A stretch of 64,000 nt of DNA from an uncultured Gammaproteobacteria bacterium (GCA_964500725.1 CAZCNP010000004.1:12139-76138); one strand, 5' to 3'. Shown: positions 50,239 to 64,000, numbered from the stretch's first letter. Notes: generated by a model not told the origin, from the sequence alone. Made by a program: numbers and translations.

Positions 50239-50265
50239 AGTAACATGCTACCAAATATGATATCA

Positions 50266-50295
50266 TTTGTCAATATCAATAAGCAATATCATTCA
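50266..50295. promoter_or_regulatory. putative promoter/operator of the Phd-PIN operon (copy 1)
   Basis: The sequence tttgtcaatatcaataagcaatatcattca contains the direct repeat CAATATCA twice. It is 29/30 identical to 50999-51028, upstream of the second Phd-PIN operon. Confidence 0.5.
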
Positions 50296-50968: not shown

Positions 50969-50998
50969 AATATATACATTTTAGCCAAAATGGCCATT

Positions 50999-51028
50999 TT
51001 TGTCAATATCAGTAAGCAATATCATTCA
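50999..51028. promoter_or_regulatory. putative promoter/operator of the Phd-PIN operon (copy 2)
   Basis: The sequence tttgtcaatatcagtaagcaatatcattca is a near-identical copy of 50266-50295. Confidence 0.5.
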
Positions 51029-55365: not shown

Positions 55366-57693
55366 TTATTTATTCTTTAGCTGACTGATTAAATATTCCC
55401 TAAATCCAGAGGGTCTGGAAAAAGCTATAACCTCTTTTATTCCTTTTTCTTTAGCGTACAAGAGGGCTTGTTCAATTAAAAGAATACTTGGTCTTTGGGT
55501 ATTGGAACGGATGATTTTGACGTTTTCTAAGCCTGGATATTTCATTAACACATTGTAACCCATGGAAGACTGATCCTGATCTCTGCCACCCTCTAATATC
55601 TTCCATACTATCGCCCCAGGCAGACCTCCCTTACTCTGACGATGAAAGTTTAAAACATGATCTAAATCTGAATTAACATACCATTCAATCTTTTCTTTAG
55701 CCAGCTGCGCTAACTTTTCTTTATCAATCCCATTAGTTTGCAGGTTTTGCTGCTCACCCTTTTTAGACAATCTAACAGAAATAGCCACACAAACCAGAGC
55801 ATCCCCATTTGGATCATTATTTTGTAAAGTACCACCATCTGTGGCTTGTTCCCAACTGGTTAAAGACTCCGCAATTTGGCTTTTTAGCCTGATACAAGAC
55901 AATGTTCCTACCAACCCTAATTTTTCTTCAAACACCCCTAGCAAAACTCCATTTTCAGCCCTACTGGCAAATTCAGATAAAGGAGCTTTCAAAGGAGCAA
56001 AACGCTCATTATTAATCTCTGTTGCAGTTTTTAAAATCTCAGTTTCTGTAGACAAAATCTGTCTAACAAAGTAGCGCTTCTCTTCCTGGCCTTCTTTTAA
56101 TAGCTTATCCACCTTTTTTTTAGTCTCAAACCTTTGGATTTTACCTGTAGAAGTCTTTGGTAAACTCTCAAAAACAAATACTTTTTTTGGCACCTCATAG
56201 GCAGAAATTCCTGTTATCTTACCCTCTTGTCCAGCCTCAATAATTTGTTTTACTAGAACTTGTCCATCAATTCCTTTTTTAGGAACAATTGCAGCACCTA
56301 CTTCCTCCCCCATTCTTACATCTTCAATCCCCACTACTGCCACCTCATCAATCCCAGGAAAATTTTTAAGCAAACTATCCTCAATTGCAGAGGGAGACAA
56401 ATTTACCCCACCCTTGATAATGATTTCTTTTATTCTACCAATCAAAAAGAAATACTTTTTTCCATCAATTATTTTAAAATATCCTAAATCCCCAGAATGA
56501 AACCAGCCTTTTTTAAATGCTTTGGCAGTTTCTTCAGGATTGTTTAAATAACCATCGGCCAAAACAGGACCGCTCATGCACACTTCTCCATGTTCCCCTT
56601 CCTTCTTTTCATTGTTATCTTGATCCATTACAGCTATTTCATCATTGGCAAGATGCACACCGATAGTATTTATCTTAACCATTTTTTGATAATCCTTTTC
56701 AGGCAAATCAACAGGCACACCAGCCACTCTTAAGGCAGTCTCTGTTTGACCATAGCCTTGAACTACCCTAATACCAAATGTTTTATAAAACCTTAAAGTT
56801 TCCTCAGGCAAAACTGGAGCTGAACCAATACAAATTCTTTTAAAAGAAGTTACATCCAGTTTTTCTGCTTTAAACTCATCATAGCGGGTTAATAAATCGT
56901 GTAAGATAGTAGGCACAATACTAGTATTGGTGGCCTTGTACTTTGCTGCTATCTGCCAAAATTTAGAAGCTGAGTAACGGGAATTTAGAATAATAGTCCC
57001 TCCTGCCAATAGTGTGGCCAAACAGAATTCAGTGGAGTTGATATGATGCAGAGGCAGCACAATATTAAACCTAGTATTCACATCCATCCTTTGCCAATCA
57101 ACAATACCTAAAGCATTTAAAAGACAAGCTTTAGTTGATAAAAGCACCCCTTTAGGCATGGCTGTTGTTCCTGAAGTATATAAAACAACATAATGAGTAT
57201 CTAAAGATTGATTATAATGATCTTCTGTAGTTTCTACAGGTAATAATTTCTCAAATTCTGCAAAATCAGACCAAGAAAAAATCTTAATAGGATAAATTTT
57301 TTCTATTTCTACCAGTTCTGCCTGCTTGTTGTCTTCTTCTAATTTAATAAAAAGGGCTTTAGAGCTTGTGTCCTTAAGTTTGAATACTTTTCTTTCTAAG
57401 GTATCTCTTTTTGAGTCCAAAGGCACAGTAGTTGCCCCAATTAAGGCACCAGCTAGTTCAAATAACAATACTTCTGGGGTATTGTTCATCAAAATTGCAT
57501 ACCTATCTCCTTTTTTAATACCTAAATTAGTTAAAAATGAAGCGGTTTGGGCTACCAATTTATATAATTTTTTATAGGAAATTATTTGCTCTTTATCAGA
57601 ATCAACAGAAGCAGCAATTATTGCCTGCTTGTCTGCAAACCTTTGAGCATGATTTTCCAGAAGTTGTCCAATTGATTGCAAATCATTTTGCAT
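55366..57693 (-). CDS. AMP-dependent synthetase/ligase (ANL superfamily) fused to a ~250-aa C-terminal domain (possibly GNAT-like acyltransferase)
   Basis: The AMP-binding motif YTSGTTAMPKGV and further ANL core motifs are present. A C-terminal extension of about 250 aa ends ...ILLIEQALLYAKEKGIKEVIAFSRP. Confidence 0.75.
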   Translation of the reverse strand: MQNDLQSIGQLLENHAQRFADKQAIIAASVDSDKEQIISYKKLYKLVAQTASFLTNLGIKKGDRYAILMNNTPEVLLFELAGALIGATTVPLDSKRDTLERKVFKLKDTSSKALFIKLEEDNKQAELVEIEKIYPIKIFSWSDFAEFEKLLPVETTEDHYNQSLDTHYVVLYTSGTTAMPKGVLLSTKACLLNALGIVDWQRMDVNTRFNIVLPLHHINSTEFCLATLLAGGTIILNSRYSASKFWQIAAKYKATNTSIVPTILHDLLTRYDEFKAEKLDVTSFKRICIGSAPVLPEETLRFYKTFGIRVVQGYGQTETALRVAGVPVDLPEKDYQKMVKINTIGVHLANDEIAVMDQDNNEKKEGEHGEVCMSGPVLADGYLNNPEETAKAFKKGWFHSGDLGYFKIIDGKKYFFLIGRIKEIIIKGGVNLSPSAIEDSLLKNFPGIDEVAVVGIEDVRMGEEVGAAIVPKKGIDGQVLVKQIIEAGQEGKITGISAYEVPKKVFVFESLPKTSTGKIQRFETKKKVDKLLKEGQEEKRYFVRQILSTETEILKTATEINNERFAPLKAPLSEFASRAENGVLLGVFEEKLGLVGTLSCIRLKSQIAESLTSWEQATDGGTLQNNDPNGDALVCVAISVRLSKKGEQQNLQTNGIDKEKLAQLAKEKIEWYVNSDLDHVLNFHRQSKGGLPGAIVWKILEGGRDQDQSSMGYNVLMKYPGLENVKIIRSNTQRPSILLIEQALLYAKEKGIKEVIAFSRPSGFREYLISQLKNK

Positions 57694-57699
57694 ATTAAG

Positions 57700-57772
57700 T
57701 ACCAGGGGTGGGGTGCGCGCCCACGACCGCCGGGATATGAATCCGGTGCTCTACTAGCTGAGCTACCCTGGC
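57700..57772 (-). tRNA. tRNA(CAU) (elongator Met-like) with a non-canonical T-loop
   Basis: A 73-nt cloverleaf forms on the minus strand. The acceptor is GCCAGGG/CCCTGGT, the D-arm GCTC-AGCTAGTA-GAGC and the anticodon arm CCGGA-TTCATAT-CCCGG. The T-arm is GTGGG-CGCGCAC-CCCAC, which lacks T54, psi55 and A58, and the D-loop has A18 instead of G18. Confidence 0.5.
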
Positions 57773-59463: not shown

Positions 59464-59535
59464 CGCGGGGAAGTGTAACGGCTGCACACAAGGCTCATAA
59501 TCTTGAGGCAGTAGGTTCAACTCCTACCCCCGCAA
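59464..59535 (+). tRNA. tRNA-Met (CAU), initiator-like (C1xA72 mismatch)
   Basis: A 72-nt cloverleaf with acceptor CGCGGGG...CCCCGCA and A73, the same ends as bacterial tRNA-fMet. The anticodon loop is CTCATAA and the T-loop TTCAACT. Confidence 0.75.
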
Positions 59536-59548
59536 CACAATTTAGTCC

Positions 59549-59842
59549 TTGAAAAGTCCTGAAATTGGTGCTATACTAGCTTCAATGATTACTCAACAAA
59601 CTCAGATAAAAATAAATCTTCCTCTAGCTCTTAAAGAATTTTTGGAGAGCAAAGCCAACAAATTTGGCATGCCTTTAGCAGGTTATATCAAACATTTAAT
59701 GTTAAAAGATGTAGAAGAAATGGAATATCCTGTATTTGAAGCATCTGATAGAACTATCCGAAAAGCCAAGGAGGCTTTAAAGAATAAAGATAAGTCCATA
59801 CTAGTGGAAGATATTGATGGATTTTTCAAAAATCTAAAATAA
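59549..59842 (+). CDS. antitoxin of a RelE/ParE-type pair (RHH-like)
   Basis: Its stop overlaps the start of the downstream RelE/ParE-like toxin gene. The true start is likely the internal MITQQT. Confidence 0.45.
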   Translation: MKSPEIGAILASMITQQTQIKINLPLALKEFLESKANKFGMPLAGYIKHLMLKDVEEMEYPVFEASDRTIRKAKEALKNKDKSILVEDIDGFFKNLK

Positions 59843-60114
59843 TGCAAATCCGGCTGGACGGAAAGCTTCAAAAAGAACTTGAAGTCCTAAGTAAAAAAGA
59901 TCTAAAGCTTTTTAAGAAAGTTCAGAAACAACTAAATCTTTTTGCTGACAATCCCAAACATAAATCGCTTCGTGTTCATAAACTTTCAGGAGAACTCGAG
60001 AATATGCGAAGTATTTCTATTACTAAAAGTATAAGAATGAGTTATTTACAAAACGGTAATGAAGCTTACTTTTTTGATATTGGAACTCATGATGAAGTTT
60101 ATAGAAAAAAATAG
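59842..60114 (+). CDS. RelE/ParE-family toxin
   Basis: A 90-aa protein with C-terminal ...YFFDIGTHDEVYRK, a typical RelE/ParE ending. Confidence 0.65.
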   Translation: MQIRLDGKLQKELEVLSKKDLKLFKKVQKQLNLFADNPKHKSLRVHKLSGELENMRSISITKSIRMSYLQNGNEAYFFDIGTHDEVYRKK

Positions 60115-60115
60115 G

Positions 60116-60466
60116 TTATTTGAAGAATAGTTTTAACCAGCCTAACCAGTTTGGCAGTCTGATTTGAGCAGAAGAACTAACTCCTAAGATCGTTTTTAAT
60201 TTTTCCTCAGGAATAACTACTACAGTCTCCCCTTTTTTGGCAAATCCTAATTTATTTCTCACCTCTTGCTCAATAAATTCAGGAGATTGTATTAAAGAAA
60301 GCTCTTTTTTTAACTGCCGGTTTTTGATCTCCAGCTTGTAAACTACCTCTGCAGCTTGAGACAGCCTCTCCCCTGACTTGGCTGTCTCAACAGCTTGAGT
60401 AATTAAGTTATACCCTATTATTAAACTTACTAAAATTATCAATCCTAAACTGATCTTTTTGATCAT
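60116..60466 (-). CDS. septum-formation initiator family protein (FtsB/DivIC-like)
   Basis: An N-terminal transmembrane helix is followed by a coiled coil LEIKNRQLKKELSLIQSPEFIEQEVR. Confidence 0.5.
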   Translation of the reverse strand: MIKKISLGLIILVSLIIGYNLITQAVETAKSGERLSQAAEVVYKLEIKNRQLKKELSLIQSPEFIEQEVRNKLGFAKKGETVVVIPEEKLKTILGVSSSAQIRLPNWLGWLKLFFK

Positions 60467-60484: not shown

Positions 60485-61384
60485 TTGACATCTATAACCT
60501 ATAACATTATAATATGTATTATGATTACTCTACGCGATGCACACCAGCAATTCATTGGACACCTTAAAGGCAAATCCAGAGCCTCAGCTACTATCTTAGC
60601 TTATGGCAAAGACATTGATCAACTGGTAAGCTATTTACAAGACTTGGGCAAAACAGATCCAAAAAGTGTAACAACTGAGGATTTAGTAGCTTTTATGCAA
60701 AAGTTGAGCAAAGAAGACTACACCCCAAAATCAATCTCTAGAAAAACTAACTCTACTAAAACCTTCTTCAAATATTTAAAAACATCAAACATTATTGATG
60801 CTGACCCAGCCACTAACTTAGAACACCCAAAATTTGAAAATAAACCCCCTAGGATTTTAACCAAATTAGAATACCGCAGTCTGCGCGATGCAGCCAGAGC
60901 AGATACTAGAATGATAGCAGTTATAGAATTGCTTTTACAAACTGGCATTAGAATTGGAGAACTTGCCAAACTCAGGGTTGAGGATATTGATTTGGAAAAC
61001 CTCACACTTCATGTTCCCCTATTTGAAGACACCAGAGAAAGAACTATCCCATTAAATAAATCAGCAGCTGAAGCCATTAAAAATTACCTTCCCAAAAGAG
61101 CAAAAACTCCAAATCATGCCCTTTTTGTCACCAAAACTGGCAGACCTTTACTTATTAGAAATATCAGAACTGCCATTGATAGATACTTTAGGGTAGCTGG
61201 TATTAAAGGAGCTAAAGTTAATGATTTAAGACACACTTGGGTAGCTTTTCAATTACAAGCAGGTGTTCCTATGACTATGGTTTCAAAACTTGCAGGTCAC
61301 AAAAGACTCTCCACCACTGAAAAATACCTTCAATTTATCCAGGGACAAACAGTTGAAGGTAAAGTCAAATTAGAAGAGCTTTAA
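60485..61384 (+). CDS. tyrosine recombinase (XerC/XerD-like, phage-integrase family)
   Basis: The catalytic region reads LRHTWVAFQLQAGVPMTMVSKLAGHKRLSTTEKYLQ, with R, H..R and Y. An N-terminal SAM-like domain is present. Confidence 0.85.
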   Translation: MTSITYNIIICIMITLRDAHQQFIGHLKGKSRASATILAYGKDIDQLVSYLQDLGKTDPKSVTTEDLVAFMQKLSKEDYTPKSISRKTNSTKTFFKYLKTSNIIDADPATNLEHPKFENKPPRILTKLEYRSLRDAARADTRMIAVIELLLQTGIRIGELAKLRVEDIDLENLTLHVPLFEDTRERTIPLNKSAAEAIKNYLPKRAKTPNHALFVTKTGRPLLIRNIRTAIDRYFRVAGIKGAKVNDLRHTWVAFQLQAGVPMTMVSKLAGHKRLSTTEKYLQFIQGQTVEGKVKLEEL

Positions 61385-61681
61385 ATTCTTGCCAGCAGCC
61401 TTTAGCGATATTCCTATTAGGTACATTATATATAGCAGAATAAGGCTTAATCCAAAAGTCATTATAGATACTATTAGATACTGAGTCATCTCATTATGTT
61501 GATAAAAACCAGCTGCTGTTCCTATCCAAACACTAATCATAAATGGAAACAGAGGAATAAATGCTAACCATAAAATAAGGTCTGAAGAGATTATCCATAA
61601 CAGAAAAAATAGGATAAAACAAAAAAGAGTCCATAATCCAGCTAGTAAGAGAAGTATACGGAACGAGAGAGGTTTATTCAT
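61370..61681 (-). CDS. hypothetical membrane protein
   Basis: A 103-aa protein with three predicted transmembrane helices. Confidence 0.4.
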   Translation of the reverse strand: MNKPLSFRILLLLAGLWTLFCFILFFLLWIISSDLILWLAFIPLFPFMISVWIGTAAGFYQHNEMTQYLIVSIMTFGLSLILLYIMYLIGISLKAAGKNLKLF

Positions 61682-61700
61682 ATGCGGTCAGACCTGGATT

Positions 61701-61774
61701 TGGTAGGCCCGGAAGGAATCGAACCCTCGTCTTGACTGTATAAGAATCAGGTATTACCATTATACGACGGGCCT
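61701..61774 (-). tRNA. tRNA-Ile (UAU)
   Basis: A 74-nt cloverleaf with encoded CCA. The acceptor is AGGCCCG/CGGGCCT with A73, the D-arm GTAT-AATGGTA-ATAC, the anticodon arm TGATT-CTTATAC-AGTCA (anticodon TAT) and the T-arm GAGGG-TTCGATT-CCTTC. Confidence 0.6.
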
Positions 61775-61805
61775 GCCGCTAATTGTACCAAAGATTCCAG
61801 AAAAA

Positions 61806-63983
61806 CTACAACTGGGCTCTTGAGGCTACCTCTGCTTCTACTTGGGTCACATCTTTGCCAAACTTTAACCTAGATAACTCTCTGATTGCCTGGCCTATTT
61901 GAGGATTTAACATTGCTTGCCATTTTTTCATATCTTTGGTGGTATCCAGTGAAAATGGCACCACTGGTTCACCATGAACAATAGTTTTAATATAAGCATG
62001 AGGAGATTCTATATTTACCAAATCAGCCTCAGTAAAAGTGGGGGAAAATTCATGCTGCAGGTAATTGGCATCAGTAACTCCCACTCTAAAGCCAATTACT
62101 GTACCCACATTACCAAAAACAGCATTTTTTAAATCCTCCCCAATTTGGCCAATAAATTGGTTAGCCACAGTTAAATTAAGTCTATATTTTCTAGCCTCAG
62201 ATAAAATATCTGCAAAAGTATCTGTGGCAAAATTTTGGAACTCGTCAACATACAAATAAAAATCTCTTCTTTTTTCCATATCCATATCCGATCGGGACAT
62301 GGCTGCTTGCAAAATTTTGGGGACCAAAATTAATCCCAGGAAGTTGGAATTTTCCTCCCCTATTCTTCCCTTTGATAAATTCATAATCAAAATTTTACCC
62401 TCATCCATAACTTGTCTTAAGTTAAAAGCAGACTTTGATTGACCAATAATATTTCTCATCATCCTATTGGTAACAAAACGGCCAAACTTGGAAACTGTGT
62501 AGTCCAACACTTCTGATTTATGAAAATCTGTAGTTTGGGCAATTTGATCTGTCCAATAACGCCTAACCACTGGATCAGAAACTTTTGGCAGCAATTCTCT
62601 GACAAAATTAGCATCAGTCATCAGCCTAACCACTTCAACAAAAGTAGCTCCAGGGCTGCTCATTGCAGTCAACATCGCATTTCTGACCCCATGCTCAAAA
62701 CGGGGACCAATAATACCTGTTTTATTAGGATCAAACAGCTTATACATCAAACCAATAATAGAGGCTACCACAAAATGTTTTTGCTCCTCAGTGTAGGATT
62801 CAAGCATGTTTAAACCAAAAGGCCTACTCATATCTGAAGGGTCAAAATAAATAACATCTTCAGATCTGTGGGAAGGAATAAGCTGCAGCAACTCCTCTGC
62901 TGCATCCCCATGTGGGTCAATAAAACACAATCCTTTTCCTGCTAAAATATCCTGCAGCATTAAACTTTTCAAAAGCTCTGATTTACCAGTTCCTGTTCTA
63001 CCAATAATATACATATGCCTGCGCCTATCATCCTCTGATAAATAGACAGGTCTTTCAACACCTCGAAAAACTGATTTACCTAAATAAAGACCAGAGGTAG
63101 GAATTTTTTCCGGGGCTGGAGCCCTTTTGGAAGAAAGCCAGCTGATATAGGGTGTTTCTACGGACTTATTTGGAAGATGCAAAATCGAAGCAAGCTCATC
63201 TGCTGTTAAAACCGAAACCTTACTATACCTTGGCATATATCGGTAAATAAAATCAGTTAAAAATCCCTTTTCAGAATAAACCTTTGCCCCAGAGAAAGAA
63301 TTGTAGGGACCGCTAAATTGTTCAAAAGCTGCTTTGATATTAGTAAGATGCGCCTTGGCAGATTCAGCTGAAGTGCTTGAAGTCACAATCCTGATACTAG
63401 TTTCAAAGCCTGCCTTAGAGAGTTTTCCTTCCACTGCTTCGAGCTGTTTTGCATCTGGTGGGGCTTTAGGATTTTTCTCATCTCCTGGGTCTTTTTCTTT
63501 TTTCAGCCACTTTTTACCAATATCTTTCCAAGTGCTATCAGCTGGAGAAATCATCATCTGAATAGCTGCGCCTTCGTTTACCTGCATTTTGGCCAAAGCT
63601 GAGGTAACAGCAGAAAGAGGGTCTGTAGGCAAGTCTCTAAAAGTTTTAATTGGAAAATGATCAGCGCCTTTTAACTTTAGTTGGGCATAAGCTGTTTCTC
63701 CTACTTCAGAAAAAATATTATATTCAGGAACTTCTTTAATTTCTGCATCAGGGTATGCTCCATGAATTTGTTTTTCTACTAAATCTTGATGCGCTCTATG
63801 ACAGGATATAAAAAACCTTATAGACTCATGCAAGGCCACAATCTCAAAAGATAAATGGGGCTGTGGAGTAAACATAGACAACATCCCCCCAGATTTTCTT
63901 AAGGAGGCAAAGGTGGCAAAAAGTTGTTCAGCAGCATCAATTTTGATTTCATTTCCGCGCGGGACTTTTATCTGCAGAAGCAC
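61806..63983 (-). CDS. HerA/FtsK-like P-loop ATPase (DUF87-type; T4SS coupling-protein/VirD4-like family)
   Basis: The Walker A region MYIIGRTGTGKSELLKSL is followed by CFIDPHGD and the Walker B FYLYVDEFQNF. An N-terminal domain of about 330 aa precedes them. Confidence 0.5.
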   Translation of the reverse strand: MLLQIKVPRGNEIKIDAAEQLFATFASLRKSGGMLSMFTPQPHLSFEIVALHESIRFFISCHRAHQDLVEKQIHGAYPDAEIKEVPEYNIFSEVGETAYAQLKLKGADHFPIKTFRDLPTDPLSAVTSALAKMQVNEGAAIQMMISPADSTWKDIGKKWLKKEKDPGDEKNPKAPPDAKQLEAVEGKLSKAGFETSIRIVTSSTSAESAKAHLTNIKAAFEQFSGPYNSFSGAKVYSEKGFLTDFIYRYMPRYSKVSVLTADELASILHLPNKSVETPYISWLSSKRAPAPEKIPTSGLYLGKSVFRGVERPVYLSEDDRRRHMYIIGRTGTGKSELLKSLMLQDILAGKGLCFIDPHGDAAEELLQLIPSHRSEDVIYFDPSDMSRPFGLNMLESYTEEQKHFVVASIIGLMYKLFDPNKTGIIGPRFEHGVRNAMLTAMSSPGATFVEVVRLMTDANFVRELLPKVSDPVVRRYWTDQIAQTTDFHKSEVLDYTVSKFGRFVTNRMMRNIIGQSKSAFNLRQVMDEGKILIMNLSKGRIGEENSNFLGLILVPKILQAAMSRSDMDMEKRRDFYLYVDEFQNFATDTFADILSEARKYRLNLTVANQFIGQIGEDLKNAVFGNVGTVIGFRVGVTDANYLQHEFSPTFTEADLVNIESPHAYIKTIVHGEPVVPFSLDTTKDMKKWQAMLNPQIGQAIRELSRLKFGKDVTQVEAEVASRAQL

Positions 63984-64000
63984 AAACTGTAGAGATTCTT

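Follow-up and report, generated by a model that had tools for sequence, protein, structure and literature searches.

Genes at the locus

The end of the 64,000-nucleotide (nt) stretch of DNA analysed here (CAZCNP010000004.1:12139-76138, called the window) carries a divIC-like gene, a gene for a Xer-type tyrosine recombinase, a tRNA-Ile gene with anticodon UAU and, running off the edge, a gene for a large P-loop ATPase. Across 13,480 nt the window is identical to NCBI contig JACQIW010000017.1 (GCA_016198315.1, Candidatus Daviesbacteria, 83,370 bp), referred to as the source contig, and the nearest relatives of the ATPase are Ca. Daviesbacteria proteins of 780-782 amino acids (aa) with 76-93% identity. 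The host lineage is Microgenomatia, in the Candidate Phyla Radiation (CPR)/Patescibacteria. All open reading frames (ORFs), the tRNA and the ATPase motifs that a first-pass annotation of the window had named were found in the sequence, and the features are as follows (HMM, hidden Markov model; T4CP, type IV coupling protein).

60116..60466, minus strand: divIC/ftsB-like septum-formation gene, 116 aa, divergent from the recombinase (Pfam DivIC, E 8.4e-11)
60485..60513, plus strand: sigma-70 promoter of the recombinase, TTGACA-17-TATAAT (12/12 match)
60521..61384, plus strand: Xer-type tyrosine recombinase, 287 aa, SAM-like N-domain and catalytic domain (Pfam; source-record gene call)
61385..61700, no strand: hypervariable spacer from the Xer stop to tRNA-Ile (comparison with related loci)
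61370..61681, minus strand: orphan 103-aa hydrophobic ORF (no gene call in the source record)
61701..61774, minus strand: tRNA-Ile, anticodon tat (UAU) (ARAGORN; Rfam tRNA 58.7 bits)
61806..63983, minus strand: ATPase ORF inside the window (P-loop motifs, HMMs)
61806..63092, minus strand: ATPase C-terminal motor, a T4CP/TrwB-like RecA-type NTPase with helical insert (HMM, PDB sequence matches, Foldseek)
63114..63983, minus strand: ATPase N-terminal cytoplasmic domain, Pfam DUF8128 (PF26449 record; AlphaFold2 and Foldseek)
63984..64000, minus strand: in-frame continuation of the ATPase to the window edge (open frame; source contig)

Taken together, our results make it quite probable, as one joint claim, that this region is an ordinary, vertically inherited Ca. 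Daviesbacteria block and that its ATPase is a likely membrane translocase or receptor for a chromosomal type IV secretion system (T4SS). The block would be made up of three unrelated parts, i.e. the divergent divIC and xer genes, a hypervariable spacer in which small cargo such as toxin-antitoxin (TA) modules would arrive and leave, and a convergent operon of a small ORF, the ATPase and tRNA-Ile(UAU). The remaining genes of the window are mostly housekeeping genes (PolA, CarB, FtsH, an aminoacyl-tRNA synthetase, an ATP-dependent ligase, Nramp and others).

Conservation of gene order around the ATPase

Scanning one genome per species with a family profile, we obtained 80 Patescibacteria loci. 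About 21 of 82 loci, from Davies-, Levy-, Woese- (among them the complete genome CP055307), Collier-, Shapiro- and Dojkabacteria, have the genes in the order ATPase, tRNA-Ile(tat), Xer (convergent) and DivIC (divergent from Xer). Presence of the block is not patchy; it is kept across Microgenomatia. In the window 31 nt separate the ATPase stop from the tRNA-Ile, which follows on the same strand, and a tRNA-Ile(UAU) was located just downstream of the ATPase or beside xer across the class, in the window and 31 loci (e.g. L001 12540..12611, L019 12263..12337). A tRNA-Ile with a UAU anticodon is uncommon in bacteria. Furthermore, the identity of Xer drops in step with that of the ATPase, from 93/90% down to 48% for the ATPase and ~40% for Xer, and this parallel divergence is the pattern of vertically inherited core genes. 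The GC content is flat over the block, 0.35-0.40, as in the rest of the window.

From position 64,000 to its end, the source contig encodes a 105-aa ORF, an S24/S26 peptidase, a nickel superoxide dismutase (Ni-SOD), a TrxB-like gene, PAP2, a cytidylyltransferase and a Crp-type regulator, and the contigs of two close relatives have a matching gene set beyond the ATPase. A relaxase, VirB4, a nuclease and any other gene for transfer or defence are all missing from the source contig beyond 64,000. The partners that the first-pass annotation had suggested looking for in this flank are thus absent, and the small ORF, the Ni-SOD operon and housekeeping genes stand there instead. Judged from their translations, the other frequent ATPase neighbours in related loci seem to be genes for replication or housekeeping (e.g. 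DnaX, CysRS, GyrB and ribonucleotide reductase), and T4SS genes are never among them. We conclude that the adjacency of ATPase and recombinase is conserved synteny and not an integration or conjugation module.

The 105-aa ORF, at the window equivalent of 64158..64475 (L087 13638..13955), lies 3 nt upstream of the ATPase and encodes a basic protein. Nearly every CPR locus has such a small ORF directly in front of the ATPase gene and in the same orientation, and its sequence is conserved only within lineages. The C-terminal motif is a basic RWL-type helix in Microgenomatia (including the 105-aa ORF), IPGVNKFFLEQEAKIKTDKI in Parcubacteria-type loci and LIEKEWV...DPY...ADY.KKRY in Saccharibacteria-type loci. 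A Pfam search of the small upstream ORFs and other conserved neighbours returned no families. The product of the small ORF is a candidate for an obligate partner of the ATPase.

In Parcubacteria-type loci (L052 13275..13910 and 15 others) a conserved ~210-aa protein without known family comes after the ATPase, and a DnaX-looking gene (translation only) after that, giving a recurrent four-gene arrangement.

Sequence and family of the ATPase

The ATPase had been described as a 725-aa protein in the first-pass annotation, which turned out to be a truncation, as no stop closes the frame before the window ends (ESLQFVLLQIK...). The gene does continue past 64,000: in the source contig it encodes 782 aa, with its start at what would be position 64154, 57 residues beyond the listed ORF. 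The single transmembrane (TM) helix of the protein lies within these 57 extra N-terminal residues. In the motor domain, Walker A (GRTGTGKS, 62979..63002), Walker B (FYLYVDEFQNF, 62229..62261), an IDPHGD motif and a conserved ARKY...NQ..GQ motif were identified. The Walker A, DPxG, Walker B and RK...Q..Q residues are invariant across the family alignment, which indicates an intact nucleotide-binding site. A paralogue search within the window found none.

The assignment to a HerA/TraD/VirD4-type family was right. Profile HMM searches, as proposed together with that assignment, gave a single model with a score above its cut-off, DUF87, the HerA central domain. The T4CP models were weak to moderate: TrwB_AAD_bind scored 19.8 bits (cut-off 20.5), TraG-D_C 20 (cut-off 22) and SXT_TraD 58 bits at E 5.8e-16 (cut-off 366 bits). 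FtsK_SpoIIIE reached 18.8 bits, also under its cut-off, and the test for VirB4 failed at profile level (TIGR00929, E 0.0078, 14.5 bits vs. a cut-off of 643). Among proteins of solved structure, TrwB and DotL are closest by sequence, and for the motor TrwB is also close by fold. PF26449 and PF01935 are precomputed for the exact ATPase product and for all 120 closest homologues; the ATPase is a member of the Pfam DUF8128 plus DUF87 family of Patescibacteria.

This family is large, with 6,112 clusters (50% identity) at E<=1e-30 and 15,444 at E<=1e-10, and in Daviesbacteria more than 100 clusters have an ATPase 76-93% identical to that of the window. Close homologues are named 'type IV secretory system conjugative DNA transfer family protein' or 'T4SS DNA-binding domain-containing protein' at NCBI, and distant members also carry TrwB_AAD_bind (PF10412), T4SS-DNA_transf (PF02534) and TraG-D_C (PF12696) on record. 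According to Quinonero-Coronel et al. 2025 (PMC12102498), 2,918 of 3,035 Patescibacteria genomes (96%) encode VirD4-like T4CP homologues, 5,713 in total, with 148 of the 5,713 near virB4, and VirB4 itself was found in 2,417 genomes. These T4CP homologues are chromosomal, mostly far from virB4, near-universal and without an assigned function, in all of which they are like the window ATPase, whose family most likely belongs to this set. The passages of PMC12102498 used here do not mention the DUF8128 N-domain, the VirB4-like fold described below, the upstream small ORF or the Xer/DivIC/tRNA-Ile synteny of Microgenomatia, and a literature search for DUF8128 gave no match. The ATPase family is already known and published but functionally uncharacterised, and the window protein is one more member of it.

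Predicted structure and characterized relatives

A structure prediction of the N-terminal part had been proposed in the first-pass annotation. The full-length AlphaFold2 model (pLDDT, the predicted local distance difference test, 85.5) has one long N-terminal membrane helix, an alpha/beta N-domain (~56-345), a RecA-type motor and a helical insert (~455-570). Modelled alone, the N-domain reached a pLDDT of 94.9, and the only strong Foldseek matches to it in the PDB were TrwK/VirB4 chains (E 6e-8 to 2e-6, probability 1.0; TM-score, the template modelling score, normalised to the query 0.47-0.55), followed by unrelated oxidases at E>=2e-4. Also with the full-length model the top matches were TrwK/VirB4 chains, with both domains aligned. 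In the predicted models the fold of the N-domain is that of the VirB4/TrwK N-domain, and the resemblance is structural only: hhalign of the family profile against the N-terminus of plasmid VirB4 aligned only the Walker A region and gave no sequence support for homology of the N-domains.

The best solved sequence relative, along with DotL, is TrwB of plasmid R388 (PDB 1e9r, 1e9s, 1gki), which shares with the ATPase the Walker A, (I/V)DP(H/N)GD, Walker B DE and RK...Q..Q motifs and a Foldseek TM-score normalised to TrwB of 0.57-0.63 over ~415-450 columns. However, identity is just 16-18%, and TrwB has two TM helices, no large domain between membrane anchor and motor, and a gene on a conjugative plasmid that also encodes a relaxase and a T4SS. 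TrwK/VirB4 of R388 (PDB 7o42, 8rtd), the top full-length Foldseek match (~880 columns), has the same layout of N-domain and motor; it differs in that sequence-level support is absent, as no VirB4 chain appeared in the ATPase profile search of PDB sequences, and in that no VirB3, VirB6 or VirB8 gene adjoins the ATPase. HerA (PDB 4d2i, 9x1m) is similar through DUF87, a domain spread over the whole superfamily, and by Foldseek (E ~5e-12), but the N-domain of the ATPase is not a HAS barrel, T4CP models score higher, and a NurA, Mre11 or Rad50 neighbour is lacking.

Full-length relatives of the ATPase (24-30% identity, residues ~54-735) were detected by tblastn on Bacillus, Streptomyces, haloarchaeal and Sulfolobus plasmids. 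One of them, WEZ26732.1 of the pLS20-like Bacillus subtilis plasmid CP120602, is 25% identical over N-domain and motor (E 4e-43). Its gene belongs to a conjugation operon that also encodes TcpD/TcpE-family proteins, a CD3337-family protein resembling VirB6 and, across the record origin, a VirB4-like ORF. As this VirB4-like ORF is a separate one, WEZ26732.1 is the second, coupling-type ATPase of the operon. The two-domain architecture is thus common to monoderm plasmid systems and the window ATPase, although WEZ26732.1 is plasmid-borne and, at 913 aa, has a C-terminal extension.

The neighbouring recombinase

The start of the recombinase had been placed at the TTG at 60485. This TTG is the -35 hexamer of the promoter, and the real start is the ATG at 60521, since orthologues and the source-record gene call begin there. 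A TTGACA-18-TACAAT promoter is readable at the same position in the intergenic sequence of a related locus (L003). The protein matches Phage_integrase (107.8 bits, cut-off 27.1) and Phage_int_SAM_1 (50.6 bits, cut-off 22.3), and the best NCBIfam matches were all under the equivalog cut-off (XerA_Arch 162.9 vs. 220, XerD 156.9 vs. 329.6 and XerC 156.9 vs. 335).

The 'RHRY region' reported for this enzyme is present in part. Both arginines, the last histidine and the tyrosine are there (R144, R237, H260 and Y269, invariant in 21 orthologues and in a profile alignment to XerA/XerD). The first histidine of HxxR is replaced by an asparagine, N234 (VNDLR), in all 21 orthologues, and the beta-hairpin lysine is absent, its position (XerD K172) being variable with R, P, G, N or E; in the window the hairpin reads ...EDTRERTIPL. 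Judged from an alignment of 17 orthologues (L003-L046), the Microgenomatia Xer clade may be catalytically atypical. The best profile matches were to archaeal XerA (PDB 5hxy, E 2.9e-38; 4a8e, E 1.3e-28), with E. coli XerD (1a0p) matching at E 1.6e-34. The window recombinase has the two-domain architecture, the length, both arginines, the last histidine and the tyrosine nucleophile in common with these enzymes, and differs from them in the hairpin lysine and in the asparagine at the first HxxR position. For the biochemistry of recombinases, the loss of two canonical catalytic residues in this clade is a separate small lead.

DivIC adjoins Xer in at least 13 related loci. Because of its closeness to XerA/XerD and the head-to-head divIC gene, the recombinase may be the Xer-type enzyme of the lineage, which would resolve chromosome dimers at division. 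Some observations speak against this role, which would follow from family resemblance and the divIC neighbour only, with two canonical catalytic residues missing. Moreover, the xer-divIC intergenic regions of 13 loci contain promoters and no dif, and a dif scan of the window with the Firmicutes/E. coli consensus gave a single match, which coincides with the -10 box and start codon of xer and is no better than chance, as 16 of 100 shuffled sequences also matched.

Among the PDB entries that align with Xer recombinases lengthwise is 9i5v chain 14 (401 residues, E 3.6e-29), labelled 'Ribosome-associated translation inhibitor RaiA'. Probably this label is wrong or the chain is a fusion.

Proposed role of the ATPase

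With a membrane anchor, a bulk that is cytoplasmic and a T4CP-type motor, the ATPase would assemble into a hexameric ring tethered to the membrane and, at the expense of ATP, recruit or pump a macromolecule (DNA or protein) on the cytoplasmic side. The family is under strong purifying selection and near-universal in its distribution. Most probably the ATPase would serve as receptor or motor for the chromosomal monoderm-type T4SS that is encoded elsewhere in most Patescibacteria genomes, and the small upstream protein may act as its adaptor. The T4SS of Patescibacteria is essential for their epibiotic life.

Several observations weigh against this role. The ATPase scores under the curated cut-off of every T4CP model and does not have the classical T4CP architecture, as it has a single TM helix and a 290-residue VirB4-like N-domain between anchor and motor. 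No T4SS gene or relaxase is present within 10 kb of the ATPase, here or in 84 loci, so that coupling to a T4SS is an inferred one; this distance agrees with the low number of T4CP homologues near virB4 (148 of 5,713) given in PMC12102498. The same paper reports that T4CP homologues occur in more Patescibacteria genomes than VirB4 (96% vs. 80%), and that in Southlakia epibionticum t4cp is dispensable for epibiotic growth whereas the T4SS is essential; exaptation is left possible by the authors.

Regarding alternatives, the ATPase could be a surrogate of FtsK, i.e. a septal DNA pump that clears and aligns chromosomes and activates the atypical neighbouring Xer at division in Microgenomatia. Xer is the commonest ATPase neighbour (21/82 loci) and comes with DivIC, in other CPR classes the ATPase is found near the DNA-replication genes DnaX and GyrB (read from translations), and T4CPs are within the FtsK/HerA superfamily (review PMC12857230). 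The active site of Xer is modified, and its closest relative is the FtsK-independent XerA. In addition, neither the window nor the related loci (~1.4 Mb) gave a tblastn match to the E. coli FtsK motor, but this covers ~2% of each genome and non-detection in such a sample is uninformative. In the literature on FtsK in CPR we found only the annotation of ftsK in TM7x, which is itself a Patescibacterium (PMC10768705). The ATPase and xer genes are convergent and not co-transcribed, with the tRNA and a variable spacer between them, their linkage is limited to one class, and the motor is T4CP-like and matches FtsK_SpoIIIE poorly. We therefore regard an FtsK surrogate as unlikely. A bolder variant, in which the ATPase is an intermediate of VirB4 and VirD4 and a stand-alone membrane DNA pump tied to Xer and DivIC that replaces FtsK in the clearing and resolution of chromosomes at the septum of ultra-small cells, appears decidedly unlikely.

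The ATPase could also be a stand-alone motor for DNA import or export, like archaeal Ced or the DNA-release variants of T4SS, and allow auxotrophic cells to acquire nucleotides or DNA independently of a T4SS. There are weak NCBIfam matches to CedB (E 1.7e-7) and CedD, full-length homologues occur on archaeal plasmids, and the excess of T4CP homologues over VirB4 in Patescibacteria (PMC12102498) would fit. Nevertheless, the Ced matches score far under cut-off and lie mostly in the Walker A region, the genes near the ATPase include no partner that would form a channel, and competence of Saccharibacteria depends on ComEC and type IV pili (PMC12857230). The probability of such a motor is, in our judgement, slight.

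In the first-pass annotation the recombinase, the tRNA-Ile and the ATPase were seen as the possible edge of an integrated element, such as an integrative and conjugative element, an island or a conjugation module, inserted at the tRNA and continuing past 64,000, or as part of a defence system. An integrase-family gene indeed adjoins the tRNA 3' end with a conjugation-type ATPase close by, the tRNA-Xer spacer varies and in relatives contains TA modules, and full-length ATPase homologues reside on conjugative plasmids. However, order and orientation of the block are kept across the whole class while the proteins diverge together, composition does not shift across the block, Xer is paired with divIC and not with element genes, and the DNA beyond the window is housekeeping without relaxase or VirB4. 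Attachment-site (att) repeats matching the tRNA 3' end, which the same annotation had proposed as a check, do not occur: neither repeats within 50-64 kb nor the tRNA 3' half with <=3 mismatches gave a match, and 18-45-nt probes from the tRNA-Ile 3' segment, with mismatches allowed, found no second copy in 32 places (the window and 31 related loci). With the ATPase as a conserved core gene and no flanking repeat, an integrated element is refuted and we give it very little credence; a conjugation or defence module is not supported.

Least probable of all is an anti-phage defence system of HerA type or MADS mad8 type, in spite of DUF87 above the Pfam cut-off and TA modules in the neighbourhood. 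The PADLOC mad8 match (E 4.6e-17) and the weak HerA matches do not extend beyond the NTPase core that these proteins share, and neither here nor in 84 loci does the ATPase have a nuclease, methylase, Sir2 or further defence gene as a neighbour. The N-domain differs from the HAS barrel of HerA, and the family is near-universal, single-locus and syntenic whereas defence islands are patchy.

The FtsK-like, Ced-like and defence roles thus have less support than a T4SS-linked translocase. The residual interest of the locus is in the ATPase family, which, of the Patescibacteria proteins whose role is unknown, is one of the most broadly conserved. The VirB4 fold of the N-domain, the preceding small ORF, the relatives in conjugation operons of monoderm and archaeal plasmids and the class-wide linkage to xer/divIC provide handles for experiments in the few Saccharibacteria that can be cultivated. 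The VirB4-like N-domain, the upstream small ORF, the xer/divIC linkage and the atypical Xer site are modest leads and not discoveries.

The spacer, tRNAs and other features of the window

The 'small membrane protein' that had been placed between the recombinase and the tRNA is the 103-aa hydrophobic ORF. It has no homologue in 84 related loci, and nucleotide comparison with these loci gave only a chance-level match of 31-37 nt; this ORF is probably not a gene. In relatives the spacer holds VapBC- or YafQ-type TA genes, a sigma70_r4 gene, another orphan ORF, or just 20 nt (e.g. L003 12438..13531, L006 12428..13104, L001 12608..12970), and it varies even between close genomes. The spacer looks like an insertion hotspot for small cargo without att repeats.

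A YafQ/RelE-type toxin (59842..60114) with an upstream antitoxin (module 59549..60114) lies on the other side of divIC and is absent or replaced at the equivalent position in relatives. The antitoxin had been listed with a TTG start at 59549; here too the TTG belongs to the -35 box of a promoter (TTGAAA-17-TGnTATACT), and the source record has the gene begin at 59585. Two tRNAs with a CAU anticodon are found near tRNA-Ile, at 59464..59536 and 57700..57772. The latter, on the minus strand, scores 51.1 bits with Rfam and has no ARAGORN call; its apparent CAU anticodon and unusual G+C-rich T-loop (GTGGG-CGCGCAC-CCCAC) were read by eye.

A protein of 775 aa (55366..57693, minus strand) combines an AMP-binding, acyl-CoA synthetase-like N-terminal part with a long uncharacterised C-terminal extension. 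Finally, a 53-nt direct repeat with 77% identity is present at 50243..50295 and 50976..51028, 733 nt apart, and ends in TTGTCAATATCA(A/G)TAAGCAATATCATTCA; its two copies may be duplicated regulatory regions.

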